A DNA stretch of 20,000 bases, from positions 120,361 to 140,360 of the forward strand of contig QPGO01000187.1 of the NCBI GenBank assembly GCA_008632985.1, in the 5' to 3' direction. This DNA comes from Psammoneis japonica. Taxonomy: Eukaryota. Under the pieces are notes generated by a model that worked only from the letters and a program-made list of their open reading frames with translations, did no database searches and was not told where the DNA came from. This document shows positions 1 to 17,477 of this stretch, piece by piece; the first letter of the stretch is position 1, and every line of letters starts with the position of its first letter. Position numbers and translations under genes: made by a program.

Positions 1-2192
1 TCTTCTTCATGCGGTGGCACAGCAGGGTCGATCGTCTTAAAATCAATCAGCTTGCCCTTGTCAGGAGCACACTTCCCTTCCGCAGGAGGGTCCACACGCG
101 GCAATCTTGAAAAACAATCCGCCAAGAGACCATCTTTGCCATCAACGCATTCGAAAGTTGGGGCAAAATCTTCCAAGAAGAGTCGCCACCTAAGAACTCG
201 TTGAGAATTGAGCGCACGAAAGGTGAGATTTTTATGATCCGTAAAAACAGCACAGTCAGCTCCAAATGACATGCTTCGAAATTCTTTGAAACACATTGCC
301 ACCGCCAACAATTCTTTTTCAATCGTAGAGCAGTTCTGTTGTGCTGCGCTGAGTTTCCGGGACCAGTGAGCCACTGGTTTCCCGTCTTGCATAATTGCGG
401 CTCCCATCTGACAGTCCGAAGAGTCAGCACAAATGTGGAATGGTTTGTTGTGATCCGGGTGGACCCAAAGGGTGTCGTCCAGCATCAAGGTTTTCACATC
501 TTCAAAGGCTCGTTGACATTCAGGGGTCCATTCCAACTTGCTCTTGCCTGTCAACTTTGTGAGTGGAGCGAGCACGTGTGAGCGACGAGGCCACATGTTG
601 CGACAATAAGTTGCTGCACCGACAAACGATCGCAGTTGCGTCACAGTTTTAGGTGGTTGCATTCGTAGCACCGCTTCCACTTTCTTCTTCCACGGTCGGA
701 CTCCTGCAGGCATGAGCCAATGGCCTAAAAAATCCGTCTCTTGGACACACCATTCGCACTTGAGTGGGTTAATTTTCAGATTGTTCTCTTCTAGTCTGGA
801 TGACAGCTCATCGAGTCGACGCATGTGAGCATCAAACGAATCATCAAATTGAGCAATGTCATCGATGTAAGTTTCAACATCGACTCCTTTTGCCACTTTT
901 TCAATGATGGCTTGAGCAATGTCGGGAGAGGTTTTCAAACCCATGGCCAATCGACAACATCGAAATTTTCCAAACGGAGTAACAACAGCACACAAATCCT
1001 TGGATTCTTCGTCAAGCTCGATGTGACAATAAAACACAGTGAGGTCCAACTTGGTCAAGTGCTTGCATCCCGAGCGTCGGTGAATAACGTCTTGAATGAT
1101 CGGCAGAGGACAGACCTTTCGCTTGAGCACCTTGTTCAACTCACGAAAATCGGATGCCCATTGAACTCGTCCATCCTTTTTGGGAGTTGCAAAAGTTCCG
1201 GCTGCCCATTCAGTTGGTCCCACTGGTTCCAGTGCGCCAACATTACATGGATGTTGCAGTTCTTTCTTAAAAACGGCTTCATCCCTCTTGGACACTTCAC
1301 AAGCCTTAGAATGGAAGGGAACAGCATTGGGATCAACTTCCAAGTGAACAGTCTCATGCGGACATTTGCCAAGCATTCCATCAAAGAGGGTTTCATGCTT
1401 TTCAAGCACTGCCTGTAGCTCATCACGTTGTTCTTGAGTTAAGTGAGTTTGAGCTTGCGCCACTTTCGCGGATGATGCTTTCTCGCACTTGGCGTCCATC
1501 ACAAAAGATTGTCCGAAGGCTTCCTCATCGTCTTCGTCTTCTCCGTCGTTTTCCAGTGCATCCAACCAATTCTGAACTGAGTTCCAATGATTGGATTGCT
1601 TCATTGGGATCGACGTTTCCAACCACTTTGTTGTTCCAAATCGAAAATCAAGCACGATTCCGGCTTTCGACAAAAAGTCTTGTCCCAAAATTAAATCATG
1701 CTTGCATGGGGCATCAAAAACTTGAGCCGCAATGCTGTCGACTTGTTTTGACTTGTCAAATTCTGGCAATGTCAAGTCCTTCATAATGACGCATCGGGAG
1801 GATTCACATCGTCCGGCTGCCGTCTGAAAGCTCAACCGTCCTTCATCGTTCATGGTTGGATTCGCTCCCTTCGGCAAAACTCGAGAATGAACAAGAGTGT
1901 CAGCACCTCCTGAATCCAATGGCACTCGCAACACTCGCTCACTCTCTTGATTTTGAATGGCACGCACCGCCATCAACGTCGTTGGCACCACATTCAATGG
2001 TTTGGGAGTCGCAGTTTTAGGGGTTGGCTCAGCGCACTCCAAAACGCCGCCCAATTTTTCTTCATTCACAGCATGAGATTCCATCAGGTCTCCCACATTG
2101 TCATCAACATTAAAACATGTGTTTTCTTCACGATCACACGAAACATAAAAAGATTGAGCGACACGCTCTGACTCGGGCACTTCCGTCCCTTG
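1..2192 (-). CDS. pol: Gypsy #1 pol (protease-RT-RNaseH), open to the window edge
   Basis: Manual translation in one frame: LRVPLDSGGADT (D codon 1914-1916), KKDGRVQWASDFRELNK, ETYIDD, ADSSDCQMGA, WSRKLSAAQQNCSTIEKELL, TDHKNL, ADCFSRL. It is missing from the ORF track, consistent with no stop before base 1. Many expected Tyr are His/Cys. Confidence 0.9.
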
Positions 2193-3413
2193 TCAATTAC
2201 GCCAACTTCGTTGGCCTTGATGGGTGCGACCGTTCTGATCGCATCCATTTCCGCCTCGCATCTCACGAGGCCCTCCTTGATCAAAATGGTGCGACTCCAT
2301 TTGCCAGCCACCAGGGGGAGCTGCTCCAGCCGGATTTCCACAGCCTTGGGCATCACCGTTGGCTTGGGTGCCGTTTTGATTTTGGCAATAGGATCCATTC
2401 CCTTGAGAATTCTGGGAGTCATTGTAATTGCCGTAACCTCGGCCTCCACATCCTCCTTGATTGCCATGACTGCCACGTCCTCGACCTTGGAAGTTGCCAC
2501 GACCTCCTCGACCTTGGGGTCCTCTGCCTTGGCAGTTTCCTCGGCCTCCACCACGACCTCCGCTACGACCGCCACGGTCGGACCTCGGTCGATGGTTTTG
2601 GCTTTCTGGATTCAAAATGCAATCCTTCCACTTGTGGTCATGATTCGCATGCACCGGGCATCTAGATTCTGGATCCGTTCCACCACTGTTGCCACGAGAG
2701 CGTCTTGAAGCTTGAGACGAAGCACCATTGCTTTTCCTCTTCTTGTCCTGCTTCTTGTTGCTGCTCTTGTCAGCAAAAGATTTCTCATTGTTCGTGTGAC
2801 TGATGATCTCAGCGAGAGCATCGTTTGCTGTCGCTCGTCCTGCTCGAGTGCACATCTCACGCCACGGACGAGGGAAGCTGTCGAATGTCATCTTTTTCTT
2901 CTGAGCTTCGTTGACTTGAGGAGCATTTCCCGGAAGTTTGTTGGAGTGCCGAATCAAGGTTTCCATGCGATCTGCATGCGCCCGCACTTCAGATTTGAAT
3001 GGTTTTTTCAAAGTTGGCAAATGTTCAATCATCACATCATGCGCTTCATCATCACAATAAGACAAGTAAAAACGATTGATTTCCTGATCAAAACGCTCGA
3101 CAGTTTTATCGGCATCGTCAATTGCATTGGTCAAGTTCACCCACTTGTCCTCTGCAGCATCCGCAAGCACTTCCTCGAAATTTTCGAACAACTCCTCGCC
3201 AGTGGTGCACTCCAATTTCACAGCAATTTTACGAAAACGATCCTCAACGAACAACAATGCTTCAATGCCATGAGTGCCATCAAAACGCGGACACTTTTTT
3301 GTACGAGTGCTACCGTCATCATACGATTGGGTCAATTTCACGTCCTCCAAGTCAGAATGCTCAAATTTAGCTTCACAGCCAATGCAAGGCTCCTTCAACG
3401 ATTCACTCATCAT
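2193..3413 (-). CDS. gag: Gypsy #1 gag-like protein
   Basis: Part of ORF 2193..3581, likely ATG at 3413 (MMSESLKEP). It has a CPVH...HKWKDC knuckle-like motif and an RGG-rich tail, and lies directly upstream of pol. Confidence 0.8.
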   Translation of the reverse strand: MMSESLKEPCIGCEAKFEHSDLEDVKLTQSYDDGSTRTKKCPRFDGTHGIEALLFVEDRFRKIAVKLECTTGEELFENFEEVLADAAEDKWVNLTNAIDDADKTVERFDQEINRFYLSYCDDEAHDVMIEHLPTLKKPFKSEVRAHADRMETLIRHSNKLPGNAPQVNEAQKKKMTFDSFPRPWREMCTRAGRATANDALAEIISHTNNEKSFADKSSNKKQDKKRKSNGASSQASRRSRGNSGGTDPESRCPVHANHDHKWKDCILNPESQNHRPRSDRGGRSGGRGGGRGNCQGRGPQGRGGRGNFQGRGRGSHGNQGGCGGRGYGNYNDSQNSQGNGSYCQNQNGTQANGDAQGCGNPAGAAPPGGWQMESHHFDQGGPREMRGGNGCDQNGRTHQGQRSWRN

Positions 3414-3618
3414 GAAAAAGGGAATGCAATTGTTCAACAGTCCTTTCCAGGGACTCCACCTTTGACTCCAAATGATGCACTCGGCTCGCCAAATTCTGTT
3501 CGTGTCGTTTACGTTGTTGCACTTGTTTCTGGTGCTCAACAGCCCAAACTGCTGCTCCTGCGCGCAGTTCTCTTTTCTCACGTTTGGTCAATTTGTTTGC
3601 ATTGTTCCCAGTCTCCAC
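3403..3618 (-). CDS. Small coiled-coil-like ORF upstream of gag (uncertain)
   Basis: 71 codons with a GTG start and heptad-like LASRVHHLESKVESLERTVEQL. Its stop overlaps the gag ATG region. Confidence 0.3.
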   Translation of the reverse strand: METGNNANKLTKREKRELRAGAAVWAVEHQKQVQQRKRHEQNLASRVHHLESKVESLERTVEQLHSLFHDE

Positions 3619-3636
3619 CCAGTTCTTTGAATCGAC

Positions 3637-3779
3637 TGTAATTACAGTGCAAGGTCTAACGAGATAAAGACTTCAGTGACAACAAAATTGTGAGTGAAAG
3701 ACCAAGGCAACGAGGGTCGCTTTCAGCGAAGCCCGTTACAACGGCTTCCGTTGTGTCTAATGGGTTCATTGGCACTACA
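3637..3779 (-). repeat. Putative short 5' LTR of Gypsy #1
   Basis: The minus strand reads TGTAGT...ATTACA (TG..CA with a short inverted end) just upstream of gag. The partner LTR is not in the window, so the inner boundary is tentative. Confidence 0.45.
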
Positions 3780-3810
3780 TGTCAGAAAAACAAGGTGCGA
3801 GACACTGCAC

Positions 3811-3900
3811 TTGTGATGACTTATGATGACTTGGGATTGCTTGTGATGACTTGTGATGACTTTTGATGACTTTTGATGACTTGTGATGACTTGTGATGAC
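3811..3900 (+). repeat. 10-bp tandem array (TTGTGATGAC-dominant), 9 units
   Basis: 5x TTGTGATGAC, 1x TTATGATGAC, 2x TTTTGATGAC, 1x TTGGGATTGC. Confidence 0.97.
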
Positions 3901-4174
3901 TTCACTTAGGAAGTCGAGTGTGCGGTTCCCGTGCGAAGGACAGCCAGCTGTCTGTCTGTGCAAAAATGTCATCAACACGAGAAGACGGAAAGGACGCGTT
4001 GATGTTGACTGGCATCAACTATGGCGTTCAAAACAACAATCAGCAAAGCCATGAAAGTAAAACCATGATTACCACAATGAAGAATTCAACTACTTTAGGT
4101 GCTGCAAATGTGAGCGTGCGGCCAGAAGCACGCGCAATTGGGCAGTCTGAGGCATCGTCAACACAAGTTGCGAG

Positions 4175-4672
4175 TCAGTTCTTGTTTTTCTTGGACTTGA
4201 TGAGCCAGTGAGAGCGCGACAAACAGTCCCTCTTCTCCTGACAAATGTGATCTCGAAATGCTTTCAACGGGAAAGCCGCGCAAGCTTGGCGGGTTGCTCG
4301 TGGCTTCTCCGGCTCGATCTTTGTCTTGTCGCGAATCGACGTGTCGACGTCAATCTTGAGCCACCTCTCCACCTCGGATCCCTGCCAACGAGGATAGCCT
4401 CGGAAGGCATGCGGTGCAGGAGGATGCAAACGCAGGTCGTGCAAGAAATCAGCCCTGTCTTGTTTGGCACGGGCTTGCCCGGCAGCGATGGTTTTCCGAA
4501 GATTGTTCAGGTTGCTCTGAAAACGCTCACAGGGGAATTCTTGAAATTCGGGGCACGTTTGGCAGATGGCTTTGGGTCCCATTCTGTCAACCTTCTTGGA
4601 AATGATGTCTTCCCCAAGAAGCATCTTTGCCTTGCTGTGCTTCCAACCTTTTTTTCCTCTTGCCATGGTCAT
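4175..4672 (-). CDS. Transposon accessory protein with an internally duplicated helical domain (putative DNA-binding)
   Basis: ATG at 4672/4666. Two related modules: WKHSKAKMLLGED..PKAICQTCPEFQEFPCERF and WQGSEVERWLKID..PEKPRATRQACAAFPLKAF. Basic termini. Confidence 0.7.
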   Translation of the reverse strand: MTMARGKKGWKHSKAKMLLGEDIISKKVDRMGPKAICQTCPEFQEFPCERFQSNLNNLRKTIAAGQARAKQDRADFLHDLRLHPPAPHAFRGYPRWQGSEVERWLKIDVDTSIRDKTKIEPEKPRATRQACAAFPLKAFRDHICQEKRDCLSRSHWLIKSKKNKN

Positions 4673-5061
4673 CGTTCCCTGTTGGCTCTGTCGTCTTGGT
4701 TCTGCTGTGTGCTGTGGACTGGCCAGGAAATCGCCAAAAATTGTTTTGCCACAAAACTTTGGAATTTGAGTGGGCGGCACATTTCTACGTGCACACTAGA
4801 TTTTCGGTGCATTTCTGCGAAACTCAGTGAGAAACAAAAACCATGTGGAAGCGCACAGGCAGAGATTGCCAGGTTAACCCGGCAAAAAAATTTGAGTTTG
4901 AATCCCTCTTGTTGATCCTCGAAGGAAAATGTACATTGTGTTGTCTTTGCAAACACACATGGGAAAAACATTTCCCACGCTTGGCACGAACAAAATTTTG
5001 GAGGTTTAGCGAGGCAAAGTTCTCGCTCAAGTTCTTTCTTCATTGCATGCACAGCAGCTCA

Positions 5062-6845
5062 ATGAGCAGCAGTGGCAGTCAAAACCAACAGCTGCAGCAG
5101 CCACTTTCCTCTCCATCGCCCAACAGGACCAGGAGATCCATCGGAAGCAGACGTTGCGACTCTGTTCCCGCAGCTGTCAACCAAGCAATCATTGAATCGC
5201 TGCTCCGTGATGGGACCGTCTTGTTCTCCGACTTTCACAACAACGAACTTTGCGGATCAGCCGACAAGTCCGAGGAAAGAAGAGCTAGAAACCAATTTGA
5301 CGTCATCCGCCGCTGGCTGAACTGTCAACCCAATCATTTCGACAACTTGGTCAGAGATCTCGAAGCAATCGAAGACACGCCGGAACCGGAAGAGCCTTCA
5401 CCAGCAGCCGCACCAGCAGCGGTGCCAGCAGCCGCACCAGCAGCAGAACCAGCAGCATCAACACGAAGAGCCATGGCGAGCAAGTGCTGCATTGTTCCAT
5501 TTTTTACAACTGTTTTGCATCTCTCACCATCACGTCGCCTTCTTCTTTTGTTCTTTTGCAGATGTCTTTGATGGTGCCAACGAGACGGCGGAGCTCCTGG
5601 CCATCGAGATCAAGGTCAGGACATTCAACTTAGTCCGACCCGAGAGGAACGACGGTGTGCTCCTTTTGCCCATCCCACGTGAGACAGTCGCGACCGGTGA
5701 GGTGGTCAGGGCCCTGACCATCCAGCAACCTGTCGGTGACGACGACTGCCGCGATGGTTTGCACTCCACAGAAATCATTGAGGGGGGGCGTGGCATCAGG
5801 ATCAAGAAGCCCGCCATCTACAACTGGCAACGTCAAGCACAGGCAGTCCAAGAAATAATTGGAAATGGGGCCGCAAACCCTGACACGCTCGTCACTCATC
5901 AGGCAGTCGAGACTGCGTTGAACGAGGACGAGACTCGTCGCACCGTCAAGACAGACTGCATGCTGCCCGACGGCCTCATTTGCAGCAAACGCTGCTTCAA
6001 CACTGGGGCTCCGAACGAAATGCTCAACAACAATTGTCATGTCATTGGTTTTGTTGAGAGTGACCAAACCGATGCCACCGGCGCAAGGCAAACGATTGCC
6101 ACGGTCACGAAGATGCTCGTCCAATGGAAGGTCATGATCGAGAGAGCCAGGGTTGAGCGCATTGGCCCTCAAGCCACCAACGATCACAACCGGGCCATGA
6201 ATGATGCACTGGAACGCATCAGGAACTTGCGCCTTGGTGCTGGTCATGGACGTGGACGTGGATGTGGTGGCGGTGGTGTGTGAGCAATGTGTGCTGATTT
6301 CCATTTTGTGTTTCCTTTTCTAAAACAGATTTGTTTGTTTCTTCAAATTCCTTTTTCAAACAGTTCCTCCTGGAAACAATGGTGCTCAACTGCCTCCAGC
6401 AGCATTGGTGCCGGTGCAAGCTCCTCCAGCAGCATTGGTGCCGGCGGAAGCTCCTCCAGCAGCGTTGGCACCGGTGCAAGCTCTTCCACCGTCGCCTCCA
6501 GCAGCAGCCGCCGCAGCAGCAGCAGCCTCGTCGTCTCTTGCCAGAGCTGCTGCGCAACCTAGAAATGAGGTTCGTGTGGCTGATGAGACGGCACATCTAA
6601 AGCGTCCACGCAGCCGCATCGAAAATGATGACGAGGAACACGAGGAGCTGTCGCGCCAGGCGAATTCGGCCTTGCGTCGTGCACAAGCCAACAGAGAGAG
6701 AGCTCTGCGTCGACGTGAGCAGGAAGAGCAAGCAAGGCACGTTCAGAATCTAGAGGAAGTGCGACGCATCCGGGAGCTGCAAGAGCAAGAGCAGCAGGAG
6801 CAAGAAAACGACGTTGATGGCGACTGCGACATCATGCCTCTGTGA
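5062..6845 (+). CDS. Three-exon unknown protein (~537 aa): exons 5062-5479, 5562-6275, 6364-6845
   Basis: Intron 5480-5561 (GCAAGT...CTCAC...pyrimidine tract...GCAG) and intron 6276-6363 (GTGTGT...ACAG) join three listed ORFs in frame (1614 nt). It has Pro/Ala linkers and a charged coiled-coil C-terminus. Confidence 0.6.
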
Positions 6846-6921
6846 GCTGTCCTCTGGTTTGTTGTCATTTTAGAACACCGCATCACAACTTAAACTGCCA
6901 CTAATTCTTCAAAGTAAAAAG

Positions 6922-7621
6922 CCAGACATCAAACAGGGGATGTCCATTGTCCATGTTGCACTGCACAAGAACGCAGACCACTTCGAAACAGGCTTGGTGG
7001 CGGTCGAATCCGTGCCTGAAAGGCTTTTTCAAGACCTCAAAACTCTTGAGCAACCCGTTCAATTTTTCGTGACGGGCACGAGCTCTCCTCTTGAAGCGAA
7101 TGACTTCCACAGAATCAAGATCATTGCGGATTGCACAAGTCGGATCCCTGCAAATCCGATCCGCAACGACTTTTTTCCCAGGCGGGATCTTGCTCTTGAG
7201 TCCGTTGGGCGCTTTGCAGATCTTGAGGTCGTTGCCAGCTCCAGACCGAAACGGTCCATTGATCCATGCAATCTTGCTTTCATGCATTGAAAGGCCGACC
7301 TCACAGGTGACCCCAGGCCCATTGGATTTCTTGGAGCACCAATTCGAGTTTGGGTCTTGTCGCTGCTCCTCCATTTCACAATCGATGCCATCAGTGGAAA
7401 GCACAAAGACCTCGCCACGCTCACCAAGGTTGGCCCAGACAATCTGCATTGTGTGGACAGCAGACAGAAAGCAAAAGAGTGCAAGCGAAAACATTTAAAG
7501 TCGTCCCAATGCCAGTGACGATTCACGACTCACCTTGTGTTCTTTCAATGCGGCGGTGGCATTGACGTGCTTCTTGATGTGGTTGCGACATGTTTCTTCA
7601 CAAGGTCCCCATCGTCCAGAC
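6922..7621 (-). pseudogene. DDE transposase, 3' part (exons 7534-7621 and 6922-7443; intron 7444-7533)
   Basis: Motifs STDGIDC, WINGPF..G..ND, VVADRIC, RARARHEKLNG..K.F..L...FRH. A phase-0 GTGAGT...GCAG intron joins ...LKEHK to IVW... Confidence 0.85.
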
Positions 7622-7821
7622 TGTGTGTTCCAGCTCTAGGTGGGACCTCGCACTGCTGAACTGTGACACAATTATTTTTTGTCATCCGTCGCATGTTTCG
7701 CACGTGCATTTCTACGTGTTCCATTATAAAAAATTGTTCCACACTGCCTGTTTTGTGAAGCCAAAGGCTTTCTGTCATCTGCACTTTTGTCAACAAAAAT
7801 GCGCTGGGCACATTCTTTAAT

Positions 7822-8252
7822 TGCCCTGTGCATGCACTGGGCGCTGAAAAGAAGATGTGTTGCGACTTTGTCGTTGTGAAAATTGTGAGCCAGTTTAGAG
7901 CAGAGAAAGTGGGATCGTGCGAACAGGGAATCTTGCCAAATCCCTGTTCGTTCGCATTTGGATCGCATCAAATCGATCGTGCATTCGCATTGTGGATTGT
8001 GCGAATCAAGCCATCATGCGCTGTGCACGAGTGATGTCAGCGTGTGGAATCACGCTGCCATCGTGGGCCAGACGACGGGCCAGTGTGCTTCACACGGATG
8101 CTCTCTTGGCATCCTTCTGGAATTGCCCAAGACCTGGAGCCACGCCCTCCTGTGGTCGTGCTTCCCAGGTGCGCGTTAACAATGCCACATTGCCACGCAC
8201 AAGAGGCTCATGCATGGTCTCGCCGTGTTGTCCAGTGGCGAGGCATGCTGCA
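7822..8252 (-). repeat. 3' LTR of Gypsy #2
   Basis: Ungapped direct repeat of 14040-14470; TG...CA on the minus strand. Confidence 0.93.
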
Positions 8253-8266
8253 CACCCCCCCATGAT
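8253..8266 (-). other. Polypurine tract
   Basis: Minus strand ATCATGGGGGGGTG immediately before the 3' LTR. Confidence 0.8.
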
Positions 8267-10585
8267 CAGGGCCGTCAAGTGACAGGATGTCTCACTGGTG
8301 ATGGGGTGCAATCTGCCGTAGATTGTGCGTGTCTGTCAGCGCTCCGTTCTGGATGCGCAACGTGCTGTTGTCATGTGCGCGGACAACTCTGGCAGGTCCT
8401 GCATGGCTGTCAGAACCGCATTTAGAGGATTGTTCCTGTTTGATGAGCACCAATTGCCCTGCGGTGTGTTGGTGCTCCTTGCGTTTCTGATTTTCATGCT
8501 TGTTGTTTAAGTGGACAAGCTTCTGCTTTCTGGTTTCTGTGTGCTTCCACTCAGCATGATGGGCAACAGACAAAACCGCATCGCGTCCGAAGACCAATTG
8601 CATGGGACTTGCACGCGTGGTCGCATGTGCCGTAGCTCCAATGGCGAAGGCTGCTGCGGAGAGGATGCCACTCCATGGGTCATCTTCATCCAGTTCCACA
8701 TCCTGTGCTGAAAAGGAACGCACCATGTTGCCAAGTGTCTGGTGCGCACGTTCCACTGTGGCATTCGCCTGTGGATTCCGTTTGCTTGTGGGTTTCTTCA
8801 AAATCCCACAGTCATTTTTAATCATCTGGCTAAATTCTGCCACAAATTCTGTCCCACGGTCATAAACCACCTGGGTTGGCCACGGACATCTGCATGGCCA
8901 CGTTTGTTCCACGACGTTTGCTGCGACGTCTGCGCGTTTCACAGACACTTCTTTAATCTCGAACCACCCGGTTGCTGGGTCAATCATTGTGACTGCCCAC
9001 AATTGCAAAGTGTCCTTTCCGCGTCTTTGAATTTTATGTGGCCCTGTCATGTCTGTGCATGGAGTCTCCCATGGAATTATCTCAGCGACCTTTTCTGGTG
9101 GCTTCCCATGACGCTGCGTTCGGCGTTTTGTCTTCTGGCATTGATCGCACTTGACGCACGTAGAATGCACCCTAGATCTCACACTGGGCCAGCAGAAGTG
9201 CTGGGCAATGGATGTTTCCATGCGTGTCTCACCTGGATGACACAGTGTCTCGTGGCGCCATTCAGTTAGCGGAACCTGCAATGACTGTGGTGCTGCAATT
9301 TTGTCCTTATGACAGATTGATTGTCGTGATGACCCTCCCCCACGATGCACGTGAATGGAGCAGTCGGACGAGTCCTCAGCTCGTGAGAGCAGGCGCTTGT
9401 CCTTTTGTTGTTCTTTTTGAATGTGCTTGAAGCTAACAGGCAGAGATGCATCGTTTTGCGCGTCTGCATTAAAAGCTTCATGCAAAGGACGACTCGATGG
9501 AGTGTCTTTTACATCCGGATTGGCCTCGGAAGGCAAGCTGGGTGCCAGCCGAAGGCGACTAAGAGCGTCAGCGACTGGGTTGTGGGCACCCTCAACATGG
9601 CGTAATTTGGGACCGCATTCTTTGCATGTTGACCACCAGCGCACAACGCGCTCGGTGTTGAGTGCTTTGTGCGCAAGATTTTTATGATCAGCACATGCAA
9701 TCATGCGATGACCAAGGAGAATCGTTCGAAATTCTTTCAACGTCTCCACAATGGCGAGCAATTCTCTCTCCGTTGTTGCACAATTTAATTGTGCACTGTT
9801 GAGCTTTCTGCTGCAAAAGGCGATGGGTTTGTTGTCTTGGGATGTGACTGCTCCCAATTGACATTTAGAGGCATCGGCGTGCATCTCAAAGGGTTTGTTA
9901 AAATCAGGATGTGACAACAAAACATCATCCGACATCACCCGTTCAACGGTTTCGAACGCCTCGTCTTCAACGGACGTCCACTCCCACTTAACAGTCTCGC
10001 TTGCGAGTCGTGTCAGCGGAGCCAAGACTTCAGAACGTCTGATCCACGTGTCACGGCAGTGGTTCGCCATGCCAACAAATGAGCGCAGGTCGCGTTCATT
10101 GGTTGGGGTCACGATTCGCTTGATGGCGTCAACTTTGTCAGGCGTTGGTCGCATTCCGTCTCTGTTGACCAGGTGACCCAAGTGTTCTAATTGGGTTTGA
10201 CAGAAGTGAGATTTAGTTGCGTTGACTTTTGGTCCTGCTTTCTGGACCCTCAACAAAACTTCTTCAAGTTTGTTGAGGTGATCTTCACAGGTGCCTTTCG
10301 TCATGACGAGAAGGTCATCTAAGTGCATTCGAACGAACGACAGATCTTCAAATGAGCCTGACATGCATTCTTGGAAAATGTCTGGCGAGTTGCACAAGCC
10401 CATGGGTGACACCTGCATCTCATGCTTGCCCCACGGGAAGATGAGCATGCAGAGCTTCTTGCTGTCAGCATCCAATCAGACATGACAATGGCCCACATTT
10501 AAATTCAGCGATGTAGCCCACACAAAGCCTTCGAGCTTGAGTGGCACATCCTGGACATGAGGAATCGGGTGAGGCAATCGCTTGA

Positions 10586-11496
10586 GACTTGTTCCAGACT
10601 TAGGTGGCGCGCACATGCCCCTTTTCGCAGAAAAAATTTTTTTTATGCTTTATACAACATCGTACATATTTCATTACATTGATCATATCAATTGCTTTTA
10701 AGTAAAATAAACAGAATAAACTCGAACAAACAAACAGCCAAACCGGCCATGGCTTTCAGTGACCATGACGGCCCACTTTTTTCAGCCTTATGGAAAATTT
10801 AATGTCATGACGAGGACCTCCGTATTTGATATAGTCTATGGCATCAACAACAATAGTGAAAATGCTTGTTACAGGTTGCAGCGCGGCACAATAATACTAA
10901 ATCTGTCAGCAACAACAATTGAGCCTCAATTCACTCACAATTTGCCTCTAAGGACCATTTCTTTGCCATTGCCATGTATACTTCCTCAATATATTCGACG
11001 GATTCAAGTGTCTCAATCGTTTATGCCTCTTAAACAGTGAAAAATGGTCCGAAGTCGACGCCATTGCGTGGCTGAGCTACCCTTCTTCTCACGTCGTCCG
11101 AAACTTATCAATCAACGTATGTTTTATTCGATCCGTTGAATCAAAGTTGTATTCGCGCATTGTAACCAAAGATTAATTATGTTATGTTAGAGGGTTAATT
11201 TATATATAAGAATAATATTTTATACGTTTCTACACACATTTAGACATCTATAAATCGCTCCTCGGAAAACAGAGCTCTCAACTTACGGTGCAATTTAGGG
11301 ACTAATAACTGAGTCCATCCACAGTTTCGAATACATGGGTACACGCACAAGACCTTTCTGTATGTACCCCATAACAACACATTTGAAAATTGTTATGTTT
11401 TTACTATCGAAAATGGTGCCGCAAGTGTGGACCGCGCGTTTCATGCGAAAAGGGTCATTTTTTCGCGCGTGAGGGCACCCAAGTCTGGAACAAGTC
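10586..11496. mobile_element. Non-autonomous TIR element B (911 bp, AT-rich)
   Basis: TIR GACTTGTTCCAGACTT(A/G)GGTG at both ends and a second inverted motif ATG(C/A)CCCTTTTCGCA (10615-10629 / 11444-11458). TTGA is duplicated (10582-10585, 11497-11500), and removal restores RT ...NKRIKRLP... Confidence 0.92.
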
Positions 11497-11530
11497 TTGA
11501 TCCGTTTGTTCAGCTCTCTGAAATCATTGA

Positions 11531-11977
11531 CGCCGCATCCACGGATTCACCAGGCAAAATTGGCAAAAGTCGGGTGTGGCAAAAAGTGTGCATTTGGTCA
11601 AAATCGATCATTGAGTGCAAGCGATGGTGTCTTTGGGGTCTCTTCAGTGAGCCGAACACGCACATTTCTCATTTGATCATCACAGGTCCGTCTCATGGGG
11701 GGTGTCAAAATGTCGTGCTTTGACGCGTCTCGAGGATCAATCGTCACATGGTGTGTGCAGCCATTGAGGTTGTGTGAAATTGAAAATTCACACATTAAAG
11801 CATGACGTTTTGACATCCCCCGCAAGACGACCTGTGATGGTCAGATGAGAAATGTGCGTCATTGGCTCACTGAAGGGACCCCAAAGATACCACCATTTGC
11901 ACTCAACAATCGATTTTGACCAAATGCACACTTTTTGCCGCACCCGAGTGTTGCCTGGTGAATCCGTGGATGCGGTG
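11531..11977. mobile_element. Fold-back MITE C (447 bp) with ~190-200 bp arms, piggyBac-like TTAA target
   Basis: 11531-~11728 is the reverse complement of ~11791-11977. Flanks are TTGA / TCAA; an ancestral TTAA restores RT VRFVNDFRELNK. Confidence 0.9.
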
Positions 11978-12916
11978 TCAACAAAGCGCACCGTCAAGTC
12001 TTTCTTCGGCATGATGAATGATGGAGCTGCCCATTGGGATCGGTTGATGCGTTTGAGAACACCGACACGTGCCAGGCGTTCTACTTCTTTACGCAGCGTA
12101 GCTTCGTGCGCACGAGGTGCTTTACACAGACGAGCGTGGCATGGTTCTACACCCTCCTTGAGTTGGATGTGGTGGGGTTCTCCCTTCCATTCTCCCAGTG
12201 TCCCATCAAATGAGGACTCATGGCGTTTCAACAGTGCCAAAAGGTCGTTTTGTTGAACCACAGAAAATCTCATTGCCCCTTGCGTTGTGTCCTCGAGGCA
12301 GGCCGGCGCGCACTTAGCGTCCAAAATGCGTGAAATCCGGTCGGTTTCCGAAGACAAGGCTTCTGGATCTTGAAGATAGAAGGAGGTTTCTACCGCAGCA
12401 TCTACGTGCCTCATTGGCACTTCTCCATTGACTGATGGCCACTCTGTCATCTGCTTAGAGAAGACAATGTCAATGCCTTGTGTCTCCAGAATGTCACGTC
12501 CAACAATCATGTCGCACTTGCCCAACTTTCCGTTGTGCACGTGGACGGCATGTTTGAGTTCTTCAGTTTCGCACAATTCTGGTAACCAAAATTTAACGGC
12601 ACAGTCGTTAGACGCACTGAACGAGCCTGCTGCCGTAGCCCCAGTTTGTCTCAGCCGTTGAATGGCTTCGCAGACGCTTGCAGCATCGACTGTCGAGTAG
12701 AGTGCTGCTGGCGCCGCTGTCTGGCAGTGCCTCAATGGTTTGAGTCTTGCCCTTGCCATGTTTGGCATTCACAGCCACAAACAAGATTGGAGTGAGATGA
12801 GTCTTTTTAACTCGTTTGCGGGATTGGCCTGCAACACGTGTACGATGGTAATTCAGTTGTTCATTTGTACATTCATCTGATGCATTAAAACCACCTGCAT
12901 CGTGTCGGCCCCCTTC

Positions 12917-13978
12917 TCAGGTGTCCGAATCTTCGGAATCACTTAAGTTGAGGTCGCGGAAGTGATTGAGCTCCTCCTCGCGTGCCTTGCGCTTTTTCTG
13001 AGCGTTGGCAAAGAACTCCTCGACCTTCGATCCGATGAGAGTGTCAATGTCTTCCTCATTCCGAGGTTTTGCACCAGGCTTGCTGCCTCCATTGTTGGAA
13101 TGTCCAGTCTTGACACGTTTCACGTGGTGCTTGAGCTGACGGCAATCCTCCGTATGATGTCCACAGTCAGTCCCGTGCAGCACACACGACTTCTGGGTGT
13201 TCTGTTGGGTCGTGATCAACGACTCAGGATTGTCCGTTCTACGTCCCCGCTTGCGTGGAATCTTAGCATGTTGGTCCAGGTTGCCTTCGGTGAGCTCAAC
13301 CTGCTCGATGCGCTCGCAGAACTGTGCAAATTCGGCGACAGTGTGCGCCAACGGGTCAAAATTCTGTAGCGTCATGAACTTCTGCCATGCGTTTGGCACA
13401 CCGTGCTCGAACACATCGCACAGTTCGTCATTGGGTGATGGTGCCGGTGCTTCTCCATCCTCCGTCACAGGTGGAAACTGAGAGATGTGGCCGTCAATTT
13501 CAACAGCCCTCGCGACGCAGTCACGAGCAGAAACCTCTGCGGGCTTGCGCATGAAGCGCCTCAGACAACGCTTCTGCAATGGTGCCACCCTGTGTGGGAA
13601 GATGCTTTCCTTTGGCTTCGCAACGCTGTTGGTTTGGGATGCCTGCTTGTTAGCGGCATTGTTGAATGACGTCAGAGCATCGCCCTGCAGTGGGTCACGC
13701 ATGAGGGCAAATTTCGCTGGCCCGGTCGTCATGTTTTGTCCTTCGTGCACGCGATCCACGTTGCGCAGAAAGATTGGGAGTGTCTCGCATGTAGCCGCAG
13801 AAAGGTGCGGGATGCCCATCTCGTGCGTTGGACTGCCCGGATCAGCGGGGTTGTTGCGCAGTTTGAACGTCTGGCACTCGCCCTGCTGTGGCTCTTTCTT
13901 CTCCGGCCGTGCGAACGGAATCGGCGGCTCAATCCGCTTCTTCATGGTCGTTTTGAGATTTGTCGGTCCCACCAACAT
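12917..13978 (-). CDS. gag: Gypsy #2 gag-like protein
   Basis: 353-aa ORF between the 5' LTR and pol with a CVLHG..CGHHTEDC knuckle-like motif; contains no Tyr. Confidence 0.85.
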   Translation of the reverse strand: MLVGPTNLKTTMKKRIEPPIPFARPEKKEPQQGECQTFKLRNNPADPGSPTHEMGIPHLSAATCETLPIFLRNVDRVHEGQNMTTGPAKFALMRDPLQGDALTSFNNAANKQASQTNSVAKPKESIFPHRVAPLQKRCLRRFMRKPAEVSARDCVARAVEIDGHISQFPPVTEDGEAPAPSPNDELCDVFEHGVPNAWQKFMTLQNFDPLAHTVAEFAQFCERIEQVELTEGNLDQHAKIPRKRGRRTDNPESLITTQQNTQKSCVLHGTDCGHHTEDCRQLKHHVKRVKTGHSNNGGSKPGAKPRNEEDIDTLIGSKVEEFFANAQKKRKAREEELNHFRDLNLSDSEDSDT

Positions 13979-14039
13979 TTCGCAGTTTCGTTTCTGTGGA
14001 TTTCGTCACCTCACACAACATGCGGGAGCAATGTCACTG

Positions 14040-14470
14040 TGCCCCATGCATGTGCCAGGCACTGAAAAGAAGATGTGTTGCGACTTTGTCGTTGTGAAAA
14101 TTGTGAGCCAGTTTAGAGTGGAGAAAGTGGGATCATGCGAATGGGGAATCTTGCCAAATCCCTGTTCGTTTGCATTTGGATCGCATCAAATCGATCGTGC
14201 GTTCGCATTGTGGATCATGCGAATCAAGCCATCACGCGCCATGCACGAGTGATGTCATCGTGTGGAATCACGCTGCCATCGTGGGCCAGATGATGGGCCA
14301 GTGTGCTTCACACGGATGCTCTCTCAGCATCCTTCTGGAATTGCCCAAGACCTGGAGCCACGCCCTCCTGTGGTCGTGCTTCCCAGGTGCGCATTAACAA
14401 TGCTGCATTGCCATGCACAAGAGGCTCATGCATGGTCTCACCATGTTGTCCAGTGGCGAGGCATGCTGCA
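14040..14470 (-). repeat. 5' LTR of Gypsy #2
   Basis: Direct repeat of 7822-8252. Confidence 0.93.
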
Positions 14471-14669
14471 CAATGTCCAAAGAACACACCCGGGCACACT
14501 GCAAAGAATGCACTTCAAGTGTGGAGGAGGAGATGCGTTCGCAAAATTGCCTCTTTTTCTGTTGGCGATCACCCATGTGTCCATTGCTTGACAATTTTGC
14601 TGCGGAGCTCGCACGTGGAATTCTACGGGCCCAATGTCACAAAAAGTGCCACCTGGGCTGGAGCCCGTC

Positions 14670-14933
14670 AGACATGGGTTTCTCTTTGTCATGGCTTTGC
14701 AACCAATTCAACGCCATCAGAAACTTGCGAGCGTTGATTTTCGCAACACAAGCATTCGGAATCATCGTCATTTGAAGGTCGACGAAAACGCACGCACAAG
14801 CCTCAGGACAGACACCAAAGCCAGAGTGAAGACGCTCATGGTTCAATGAAGCTCTCACGTTTTGCCTGCCCTTGAAGCCAACAGAATCAAGGCCTGCCCC
14901 AAGAAAATCCTGTGGCGAGATGACAACGACCAT
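14670..14933 (-). pseudogene. DDE transposase, 5' part
   Basis: MVVVISP...FLMALNWLQSHDKEKPMS joins in frame to GRWGPCEETCR (codons from 7617 down) once the insert and one AGAC copy are removed, giving ~289 aa in total. Confidence 0.8.
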
Positions 14934-15074
14934 GGTTGGCTTCTTTGGTTTTATGGGGTTTGGTTTTGGTTGAACGGAGGACAAAACAATTTTCTGTCAA
15001 TGATGATGTCATTCAACTGGGGGCAACGGTCAGATTTGAAGGGCTGCATGTCAGTTTGTCTGTGGACACTGTTG

Positions 15075-15154
15075 TCTTGATGACTTATGATGACTTATGA
15101 TGACTTATGATGACTTTTGATTACTTATGATGACTTATGATGACTTATGATTAG
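15075..15154 (+). repeat. 10-bp tandem array (TTATGATGAC), 8 units
   Basis: Same unit and orientation as 3811-3900, but the TA is retained. Confidence 0.97.
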
Positions 15155-15591
15155 TTAACGAGTTTCCGCGACCAACTCTCCATTGACATTTCACGATTAA
15201 AAACATTGGCGAGTTTGGCGAGCACAGAATGTGTCTTATCGCTAAAGCAATATGAACCGTCATAACATATATATATATTTGTCCGTTGGATTCTTATAAA
15301 TAGCATATAGTAATGAAAATTCGCGGACGGTGCAGCAGTTTCTACTCGTAACGGCAAACCCAAAACGTCGTTCGAACAATGTCGTACGTCCGTCGACCGT
15401 AGGTGATTCCGTTGTAGTATGTGTCCTACGAAGTCCTACTGCAGTTTGAAAATTTGCCGTTTTGGAGTTTGCACCAACATCAGCGCGGCGGTCGGTCCAG
15501 CACAGATTTGCACTTTGCACACTTCATACCGGTAGCAGAGGAAAGGTGGTTTGTTTGTTGCTGCGAGCTTCGTACACACAGCATCCAAACC

Positions 15592-17477
15592 ATGACAAAC
15601 ACCACTCACATCGCTAGTCTCAGTTCTATTCCACACCTCTCGATTCCAAGCTGCAAAGGTCATTTCCGCAACACTCGAGTTGTGATAATTGGAGGATCCG
15701 TTGGGGGGTTGGCCGCCGCAGCCTCCCTCAAGGCTGCTGGGTTCAATCCAAAGAACCTTACCGCGGTGGAACGGGCCAAAAGTCCTCCATCTGGAGCAGG
15801 AATTGGCCTCGACGATGCATCAGTAGGCATCCTTAAGGGGTTGGGGTTGTTGTTGGGGAAAAGAGGAGAAACAGGCACTGTCGTCTCTGTTCAATCCATG
15901 CGAATGACTGAAGAACGCATACTCCCTACATGTGGAGAAGTCAAGAAAGAGATTCGTCTTTCGCAGCCGTATCCATACTCTGCAGTTTTATATTCAGAAC
16001 TGGTCAAAGGATTAGAAAGTGCTGCAGAAGGAATTGACTTTTTGAGAGGCCACAAAGCTGTAGAAATCATTTCTGAAAAAGAAGGATGCTCCCAAGTTCT
16101 TGTACAACAGGTGGATTCCCATGCTCAGAAAATTCTAGAGTGTGACTTGGCGATTGTAGCAGATGGACCCAGATCTCGATTTCGACATTTGTTTGCTTCT
16201 AGTAAAACAAAAGAAGACAAGGAGGATCTTCGATTTTCCGGGTACACGGCTTGGAGGGGAACTGTTCCTGAGACTGAACTTTCTGACAAAGTACTCGACA
16301 ACCTAAAAGAAGCTTATCCTGACTTTGGTAATTGTCTGTACTTTATCTGGGGTCCACCGGGCAAGTCGGCAGTTTTGTATGACATCGGAAAGGGCCTAGT
16401 TAATTGGTTGTTTACGATACAGAGACTTGTCCCAATGGCCAGCCCAAAGCGCCCCCTGGAAGGACAACCACCACTGCGACTCCTTCTGATATCCAACAGC
16501 TCCACCAACAGGCCGTCCATGAGTGGGGAGATGCCTTGGGAGCTTTAATTCAATCAACTCCGGATCCCTTTCAAAATGATATTTACGACATTGAAACACC
16601 TCTCGACAACTTTTGTCGTTCAGGCTTGTGTATTTTGGGAGATGCAGCGCATCCCATTTCGCCTCATTGCGCCAAGGGATCCAATTTGGCAATCCATGAT
16701 GCCTACGTGTTGGCGTGTGCCGCGGCAAAGGCCACATGCATTGCAGAACTATTACAGATGTACTCGACCTCGAGAGTTGAGGCTTGTAGGACGACCGTCA
16801 TGCTGAGTCGACATCTCGGAAGACTGAGAAATCGAATGAAGCCACTTTTACTAAACAGCGAGAGCAACATCGGCGTCGAAGTTCCTTCCACGACAGAACA
16901 ACTGAATGCTCTGGTGCGACTAGCTGATGCACAAACTTCTGTCACGTTGCCTTTTGGAAGTAGCGTGTTTGAACCTACCTGGAGCTTTATTGATGCACAA
17001 GTTCCCGCTGAGCAGCGGGGTTTCTGCCTGTCCAATGTAATGCCGACCCGGCCGCTTTCTATTGCTCAAGTGAACCATTTTTCATTGGAGACGACTCGAG
17101 TAGATCGTTTAGTAGGATTTTATCGAGACGTCCTTGGATTGACCGTCTTGACAACGAGACCAAATTTTGGCTTTGGAGGCGCTTGGCTTCAACTACCTGG
17201 AGGCATTAGTCTTCATATCATTGAACGAGATCCTACCAAGCCATCTGCGAGTGCAATCACCATTGGCAGCCAAAAGTTGGCAGTTCCAGAACGATTCATT
17301 CGACGAAGCAATCACCTAGCTCTGACGGTTCTAGACATTGAAGCTGCAAAGGCAACTCTTCGCGATCATGGCATAACGTTTGCAGTCAACAAGGTTCCCG
17401 ACACTTTTATTGAACAACTGTTTGTCTATGACCCCGACGGGAATGGGGTGGAAATTGGAAACTTTGGTCTAGTTTAA
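15592..17477 (+). CDS. FAD-dependent monooxygenase (aromatic hydroxylase type) fused to a C-terminal glyoxalase/VOC domain; 1-bp frameshift at ~16411
   Basis: Motifs VVIIGGSVGG, ER..GAGI, ADG, GY.AWRG, GDAAH, then VNHFSL..FY.DVLG..GAWL..LHII..NHLAL..DPDGNGVE. The two ORFs meet at TGG TTG TTT AC GAT, where one base is missing. Confidence 0.85.

Follow-up and report, generated by a model that had tools for sequence, protein, structure and literature searches.

The window analysed here, a 20,000-nt stretch of the Psammoneis japonica contig QPGO01000187.1 (positions 120,361 to 140,360 of the forward strand), contains a dead Ty3/gypsy (Metaviridae) long terminal repeat (LTR) retrotransposon on its minus strand at 7822-14472; all coordinates below are those of the window. 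We propose, with a probability of about 0.8, that a chromosomal hypermutation of TpA to TpG or CpA struck the block of transposon-derived DNA, at least 15 kb long, that holds this element, and that it did so after the element had inserted. The process would have been limited to the region and would have run nearly to completion. Because TA is self-complementary, an A-to-G change and a T-to-C change on the other strand would be the same event, and each LTR would have been hit independently, with chance deciding copy by copy whether a TA became TG or CA. Of the TAs converted in both copies, half should then appear as reciprocal sites (the nine described below), and the other half would be alike and invisible in the pair. 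A second, slower process, the decay of CpG to TpG or CpA, would have yielded eleven single differences.

The two LTRs provide the first record of these events. An initial repeat-finder hit (7822-8121 and 14040-14339, direct, 92% over 300 nt) grew on ungapped extension into a pair of 433 nt each, at 7822-8254 and 14040-14472, both on the minus strand, which start with TG, end with CA and lose their likeness abruptly on both sides. Since the element reads on the minus strand, the copy at 14040-14472 is the 5′ LTR and that at 7822-8254 the 3′ LTR. A first-pass annotation of this DNA, made from the sequence alone, had placed the start of the pair correctly and its end at 14470, whereas the repeat runs to 14472. 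It had also described the alignment as gapless with almost only transitions, and this is what we find: of 30 differences over the 433 nt, 29 are transitions and one is a transversion (8040, G/T), and only one differing position lies outside CG, TG and CA dinucleotides. The frequent opposition of TG to CA that it had pointed out is likewise real, and all four of its quoted examples are present as written. Nine dinucleotides are reciprocal in this sense (TG/CA at five and CA/TG at four), at 7827, 7835, 7838, 7901, 7924, 7998, 8022, 8107 and 8186. Eleven others differ singly, always a CG facing a TG or a CA; the CG is carried by the 7822 LTR at nine of these and by the 14040 LTR at two, an inequality in CpG loss that is not significant (p = 0.065). 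Both copies share CG at 19 sites and TA at only 2, each of these surviving TAs being preceded by a T, and a dinucleotide tally over the 433 nt found no site with TA opposite TG or CA. In the ancestor that had been suggested for the first quoted stretch, the last dinucleotide (7842-7843, where a CG now faces a CA) was more likely CG. A near-palindrome at the start of the LTR was set aside as probably a by-product of TG/CA-rich sequence.

Taken by itself, a TG facing a CA also fits an ancestral CG, as the first-pass annotation had cautioned. That caution is right for the eleven single sites, which are ordinary CpG decay, and perhaps for one reciprocal site (7998), but probably not for the rest. 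We fitted a CpG-only model in which decay was independent in each copy and the rates were set by the single and the conserved CG sites, giving a CpG loss of about 0.10 in one LTR and about 0.32 in the other over about 31 sites. At these rates about 0.95 sites should have been hit in both copies and 0.47 should be reciprocal, whereas nine are seen (P(≥9) = 2e-9). A 2-by-2 (Fisher) test of independence gave p = 0.011 on the visible double hits, and p = 8e-5 once an equal number of invisible concordant sites was added. Conversion of TA accounts for the number much better. Given an ancestral TA density of about 47-48 per kb (two estimates, one from control DNA and one from another copy of the family), each LTR would have held about 20 TAs, and the independent conversion of 18-20 of them predicts 8-9 reciprocal sites and as many concordant ones. 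CpG decay would contribute about 0.5 reciprocal sites, so that the expected TA-derived share of the nine exceeds 90%, and we infer that about eight of the nine were TA.

The direction of change can be read from the protein that the element once encoded. The C-terminal part of Pol (8295-10586, minus strand), identified by Pfam, by its homologs and by tblastn, comprises the end of the reverse transcriptase (RT), RNase H and the integrase; Pfam places RVT_1 (end of the RT), RT_RNaseH_2, Integrase_H2C2 and rve in this order on the minus strand within 8295-10475. The frame is open over 727 residues and contains a single tyrosine (0.14%), compared with 3.99 ± 0.38% in the aligned parts of 120 homologs. 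Cysteine and histidine are correspondingly elevated (3.30% versus 1.47%, and 5.36% versus 2.49%). We then considered the 361 alignment columns in which at least 80% of these homologs, which are 48-58% identical, share a residue. The window's Pol agrees with them in 283 of the 361 but in none of the 17 whose conserved residue is tyrosine; there it carries histidine 11 times, cysteine 5 times and arginine once. With each of the 120 homologs taken as the query instead, no fewer than 76% of the tyrosine columns were kept, with a median of 100%. Other residues of the window's Pol fared quite differently: the columns for Ala, Asp, Ser, His (7 of 7), Gln (13 of 13) and Cys (7 of 7) were all kept in full, as were 24 of 26 for Arg and 14 of 15 for Trp. 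The replacement of tyrosines by His, Cys and Arg therefore implies that TA was ancestral and that it changed to CA and TG on both strands. A secondary conversion of CA or TG to CG was considered and rejected: conserved His, Gln and Cys were all kept, Trp was kept at 14 of 15, and none of them became Arg.

The 78 differing columns tell the same story in a broader sample. A single TA step accounts for 42 of them (24 TA to CA and 18 TA to TG), and the remainder comprise 6 with a CpG step, 6 with another transition, 13 with a transversion and 11 requiring more than one step; our classifier favoured TA steps where several routes existed, but the tyrosine result is independent of that choice. The two outcomes are balanced on the sense strand (24 versus 18, p = 0.44), as they are in the LTRs (5 versus 4), so that both strands have been hit; in this, and in the prevalence of TA steps in Pol, the locus has the features of TpA hypermutation. 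Runs of strand-coordinated CA or TG along pol were not significant (17 runs versus 21.6 expected, p = 0.07). A second gypsy pol within the block (3-3587, minus strand), unrelated to the first according to Pfam and blastn, is affected in a similar manner, with 4 tyrosines in 730 residues and its 18 tyrosine columns occupied by His (4), Cys (5), Trp (1), Phe (4), Tyr (3) and Val (1). The FAD-monooxygenase frames to the right of the block, which served as a control, contain 2.4% and 1.7% tyrosine. As a working polymerase could not have lost every conserved tyrosine, the conversion would post-date the loss of function.

The same depletion extends well beyond the element. From 1 to 15085 the window forms a TpA-depleted block in which rho_TA is 0.03-0.37 per 500 nt, the only exception being a nested element at 10585-11497. 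TA occurs 145 times in 14172 nt of the block (10.2 per kb) and 281 times in the remaining 5828 nt (48.2 per kb). Over the whole window the observed/expected ratio of TA is 0.33; it falls to 0.08-0.09 in the LTRs and to 0.16-0.24 in the remaining transposon-derived parts, but is 0.61 in 10476-11787, where most of the nested element lies, and 0.50-0.63 in the right flank and the gene. By region, the ratio for CpG is 0.70-1.04 and those for TG and CA are 1.2-1.8. In 500-nt steps rho_TA is 0.66-0.82 over the nested element and 0.42-0.80 past 15000, and 13 of the 15 one-kb windows left of 15000 but none of the 5 to its right have a rho_TA of 0.43 or less. The borders are sharp. On the right, the block ends between the TAs at 14952 and 15086, that is within about 130 nt, and TA is dense from 15086 onward; on the left, it extends beyond the window. 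Inside the block, TA is dense from 10601 to 11405 and then absent until 11796. Because unrelated neighbouring elements are equally converted and the border of the block is sharp, we conclude that the process was chromosomal. The earlier claim of a chromosomal, two-stranded process, rather than RNA editing or reverse-transcriptase error, is thus supported, with DNA outside the element equally affected. Confinement to mobile DNA is also evident, in that the block holds RT, integrase and DDE genes and the neighbouring genome is normal.

Two further properties of the block bear on how the process worked. The TAs that survive in it are not a random sample: pooling the strands, the 5′ neighbour is T in 126 of 290 cases (43%) and A in 28 (10%), versus 144 (26%) and 154 (27%) of 562 outside the block (p = 1e-10), a bias that may reflect the preference of an enzyme. 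The stop codons have also been redistributed: each kb of 1-14472 has on average 17.7 TAA plus TAG and 43.6 TGA, and the corresponding figures to the right of 14472 are 40.3 and 37.1. The window contains 59 open frames of at least 100 codons, with long ones in all six frames of 1-15000. They are open because TAA and TAG have been lost and because the conversion of TpA never creates a stop codon, and most of the long frames in the TA-poor block have no family match in Pfam.

Other copies of the family, found in a public sequencing run, allowed some ancestral states to be read directly. The run contains 0.51 of the sampled 31-mers of 7000-15000 and is probably not from the exact isolate or copy. 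Its contigs were aligned to the window at a likeness of at least 80% (8706 placed), and they differ from it at 176-219 places for each kind of transition versus 9-20 for each kind of transversion. Our site-by-site comparison rests on 40 of 882 rows of differences. Among these listed rows, 15 have CA or TG in the window and TA in the others and none has the reverse; TA makes up 0.05 to 1.0 of the depth at these 15, one row being found only in run X2. Also among those listed, the others have CG where the window has CA or TG in 8 rows, and the window has the CG in 3. Two listed rows fall in an LTR. At 14291, all five other contigs read C (CG), and that single site was therefore CpG. At 14299, all nine contigs read T (TA) where both of the window's LTRs read CA, so that here an ancestral TA of the LTR is observed directly. 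LTR positions 10-11 are TG in one contig and CA in both of the window's LTRs. Within 12860-13285 (426 nt), another copy has at least 20 TAs if the window's six are also kept, equivalent to 47 per kb. Gag-region variants of the other copies straddle codon borders and are uninformative on direction. Taken together with the tyrosine columns and the loss of TA from the LTRs, these copies support the proposal, first made in the initial annotation, that the two LTRs were hit independently at ancestral TAs.

Further relatives were not found: blastn detected no additional copies of the LTR in the window, a 21-mer from it matched nothing in viral_contigs and gave one chance match of 23 nt in metagenome_contigs, a degenerate LTR pattern had no match in genome_contigs, viral_contigs contained no relatives of Pol, and a reading frame translated from the LTR had no match in a set of 5.8 billion proteins.

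Several observations weigh against our proposal or complicate it. The TA ancestry of the nine reciprocal sites is predicted by the model rather than read from less-mutated copies. A uniform conversion of 0.9-0.95 per copy predicts 2-4 sites at which TA persists in only one LTR and about 0.1 at which it persists in both, whereas the pair has none of the former and two of the latter; a class of refractory TAs would reconcile the model with these counts, and the context bias of the survivors supports such a class without proving it. Site 7998 may be CG-derived, since its motif occurs three times in the LTR and has CG at the other two. A TA-poor palindrome of 455 nt (11527-11981), with arms of about 2 x 227 nt that are 77% alike, offers a paired record of its own. 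Between the arms there are 29 transitions and 9 transversions; these include single CpG differences at 9 sites, TG facing CA at 3 and TG facing TA at 2, and CpG decay alone could explain the three reciprocal ones. The element is not flanked by a target-site duplication of 4-6 nt (its flanks are TTAAT and ATGTC), and the two LTRs may therefore stem from two insertions joined by recombination, or a later rearrangement may have intervened. Such an origin changes the dating, but the differences would still have arisen independently in two chromosomal copies. Finally, as the public run has only 0.51 of the sampled words, and as no contig carries the window's base in the 15 listed rows where every contig differs, independent reads do not confirm this exact copy at every base.

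Among the alternatives, the one that survives best, although we consider it unlikely, is that all 20 variable LTR dinucleotides were CpG, with the nine reciprocal ones being fast-decaying, heavily methylated sites deaminated on opposite strands, and with TpA conversion either preceding the insertion or playing no role in the LTRs. It draws on the eleven single differences, all CG versus TG or CA, on the CG read at 14291 in five of five contigs, and on the repeated motif at 7998 and the palindrome just described, whose 9 single and 3 reciprocal sites fit CpG decay alone. Yet with uniform rates it predicts only 0.47 reciprocal sites (P = 2e-9, as above), and without them it must invoke two classes of CpG, about 18 saturated sites beside about 31 that have suffered 9-32% loss. 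It further implies an ancestral LTR with about 48 CpGs and almost no TA, whereas the other copies have normal TA, including the TA at 14299. In Pol, arginine columns were kept at 24 of 26 and tyrosine columns lost at 17 of 17, and TA conversion was therefore far more complete than CpG decay. This alternative also leaves unaccounted for the approximately 20 TAs that each LTR would have held at insertion, half of which should now be reciprocal.

A less probable explanation is that the TG and CA calls are an assembly or base-calling artefact of modified T or A at TpA in silenced repeats, which long-read base callers would report as TG or CA depending on the strand. The pattern is indeed strand-symmetric and varies randomly among sites, which is how noise in the consensus would look if a palindromic dinucleotide were modified; the public run has only 0.51 of the sampled words; and 14299 is TA in nine of nine contigs but CA in both of the window's LTRs. 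However, about half of the sampled 31-mers of 7000-15000 do occur in the run, even though a converted site is expected about every 25 nt, so that its reads must share these converted states, and among the rows listed many sites mix the window's TG or CA with TA (TA share 0.05-0.71). Private bases of the window are also mostly of another kind: 15 of the listed rows differ in every contig, with no contig carrying the window's base, and these are mostly not at TA, the window having T or A where the others have C or G in 10 of them. In addition, the same process has been measured as new mutations with short reads in the alga Bigelowiella natans, according to the main text of a preprint (bioRxiv 10.64898/2026.01.13.699255).

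The remaining two alternatives are both very improbable. In the first, the direction is reversed: the window keeps the original CA and TG, and a process acting on C at CpA, like fungal repeat-induced point mutation (RIP), made the TAs of the other copies, which would equally fit the one-sided differences among the rows listed (15 versus 0) but not the distant homologs that fix tyrosine (TAY) at 17 columns, nor a block in which TA is far too low (rho_TA 0.03-0.37; TAA plus TAG at 17.7 versus TGA at 43.6 per kb), since RIP raises TpA and here it is lost. In the second, editing preceded integration, either as ADAR-type A-to-I editing of the RNA or as deamination of reverse-transcription intermediates. 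Edited retroelement copies are known in animals. ADAR favours a 5′ U, as mentioned in the Discussion of the same preprint (bioRxiv 10.64898/2026.01.13.699255), but both LTRs are copied from one template and would be identical after RNA editing, the sense-strand steps are balanced (24 TA to CA and 18 TA to TG, p = 0.44), and the converted neighbouring elements, the sharp border near 15085 and the untouched nested element all point to the chromosome.

Apart from its LTRs and the C-terminal part of Pol, the element is recognisable as follows. The N-terminal part of Pol (12910-11977, minus strand) is spread over two frames and was identified by tblastn; the homologs, about 1000-1100 residues long, can be aligned to both 12910-11977 and 10586-8295. 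Upstream of it, a Gag-like ORF (12920-14005, minus strand) matches no Pfam family and has no tyrosine in 362 residues. Directly adjoining 8254, the element's strand has seven consecutive Gs which, read by eye, resemble a polypurine tract. No TGG-type primer-binding site was seen by eye beside 14040, and no comparison with tRNAs was made. Some contigs of the public run join 7771 or 7775 to 14541. The flanks (7600-7836 and 14473-14700) have a summed contig depth above that of the element, which appears to sit in a still more abundant repeat.

The two parts of pol are separated by 10587-11976, which has no counterpart in the homologs and comprises the nested element and the palindrome. The nested element (10585-11497) is 913 nt long, has 22-nt terminal inverted repeats and is inserted in pol. 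It has 64 TAs between 10601 and 11405 and a G+C content of 0.40-0.41 in TA-poor surroundings, and it is either younger than the TpA conversion or exempt from it. The sole mismatch between its terminal inverted repeats is TA versus TG. The palindrome, which adjoins it, is absent from the other family copies as well as from the Pol homologs.

Elsewhere in the block, an ORF at 6904-7494 (minus strand) is Harbinger/PIF-like, with a match to DDE_Tnp_4 that lies slightly under the cut-off (E = 3.6e-5, 23.9 bits versus 24.8). Outside the block, the frames for a FAD-monooxygenase and a glyoxalase domain (15418-17477, plus strand; rho_TA about 0.5) are our internal control; the protein atlas yielded nothing beyond generic FAD-monooxygenase clusters. 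These frames, 15418-16548 and 16404-17477, overlap in two reading frames, and may belong to a single gene that is interrupted by a short intron or a frameshift. Two tandem arrays of a 10-nt unit, at 3801-3912 and 15065-15156, are 83-84% alike and in the same orientation. In the array within the block most units read ..CTTG.., and in the one that starts exactly at the border they read ..CTTA... The arrays are a third paired record of TA changing to TG; the converted units all have TG and none has CA, which suggests that the array was homogenised.

The closest known system is that of B. natans, described in the preprint cited above (Mettrop et al., 2026, bioRxiv 10.64898/2026.01.13.699255). According to its main text, 231 of 302 nuclear mutations in mutation-accumulation lines fell in integrated giant-virus and virophage regions; 230 of the 231 were A to G or T to C, and all 230 were on TpA. 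The rate was about 6e-7 per site per generation, and the process occurred in only some of the lines. The genome has 124 clusters of TpA-poor 1-kb windows, and domains of reverse transcriptases and DDE endonucleases are over-represented in its TpA-poor coding sequences. An ADAT2-like deaminase, a DNA adenine deaminase, was proposed as the agent. As far as the preprint's text describes it, that process resembles ours in acting only on TpA to give TpG or CpA depending on the strand, in affecting foreign DNA only while the neighbouring genome is normal, in its combination of TpA depletion with an excess of CpA plus TpG, and in the RT and DDE genes that are affected, as in this block. When windows are judged as in the preprint, the TpA threshold picks out runs of 10 and 3 of them; by a pooled formula, which may differ from the preprint's, 2 of 20 windows reach 1.52. 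The differences are those of age and extent: in B. natans the mutations are new and the viral regions described retain TA at 3.3% and 9.2% of dinucleotides, whereas this locus is historical and near saturation (TA about 1% of dinucleotides) and consists of LTR retrotransposons and a DDE transposon. To what is known from B. natans it adds polarised protein and paired-LTR read-outs, the context bias of the survivors and an untouched nested element. A term search of the preprint's main text found no mention of LTR, retrotransposon or tyrosine, and our literature search on TpA dinucleotides and hypermutation returned, by title and abstract, no other reports of such a TpA-only process.

Two better-known processes offer partial parallels. 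Like fungal RIP, the process at this locus would be chromosomal, dinucleotide-specific and active on both strands, and would ruin repeats in place, leaving sharp compositional blocks. RIP, however, turns C into T, chiefly at CpA, and so generates TpA and stop codons, while here A:T changes to G:C at TpA, so that TpA is destroyed, G+C is raised and no stop codons are created; as a cause, RIP can be rejected, because the direction of change is the opposite and TpA is lost. Methyl-CpG deamination likewise turns a single palindromic dinucleotide into TG and CA, acting on each LTR separately, and it explains the eleven single sites, but it fails for the loss of TpA, the change of Tyr to His or Cys and the number of reciprocal sites.

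As to the agent, the candidates would be a DNA adenine deaminase acting at T-A, or an oxidation of thymine at TpA followed by mispairing, and sequence alone does not discriminate between them. The second candidate has a possible chemical basis in dinoflagellates, where 5-hydroxymethyluracil is reported to be enriched on transposons, including LTR elements (PMC11572971; PMC11071213). In Crypthecodinium the T that it replaces is reported to lie preferentially in TA and TC (PMC11572971), and in Breviolum no sequence motif was reported around the modified T (PMC11071213). The modification is thus a conceivable route to T-to-C changes at TpA, although a mutational consequence is not among the findings reported in the parts of these papers used here. 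A search of the window for a relic of the dinoflagellate spliced leader found one match with three mismatches, versus 1.13 expected by chance, and thus gave no hint of a dinoflagellate origin.

One consequence concerns age. The raw Kimura distance between the two LTRs is 0.074, but only one of the 30 differences is an ordinary substitution, the others lying in two hypermutable dinucleotides. Dating by LTR divergence is therefore inflated here, as the first-pass annotation had anticipated, and in such blocks it would be wrong by more than one order of magnitude. Reading frames remain open after the death of the gene, and open frames are therefore no evidence of function: gene callers run on such blocks would produce many false proteins, while family searches would lose sensitivity. 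TpA hypermutation itself is already in print for one alga, having first been reported in 2026 from its laboratory lines. What is new here is its saturated end state in LTR retrotransposons and a DDE transposon, with roughly four fifths of the TAs lost from a stretch of 15 kb or more and every conserved tyrosine of Pol replaced. The locus also contributes the read-out in the protein, the bias in the bases that flank surviving TAs, a nested insertion that was spared and a clear instance of inflated LTR dating. Since the lineage is not B. natans, we tentatively raise the possibility, which we would not yet favour, that TpA hypermutation is a wider, RIP-like genome defence of eukaryotes that acts on whole transposon blocks and runs to saturation. 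If so, TAs with a 5′ T would be spared and later insertions left untouched, and the genomes concerned would be filled with long false frames and falsely old LTR ages.

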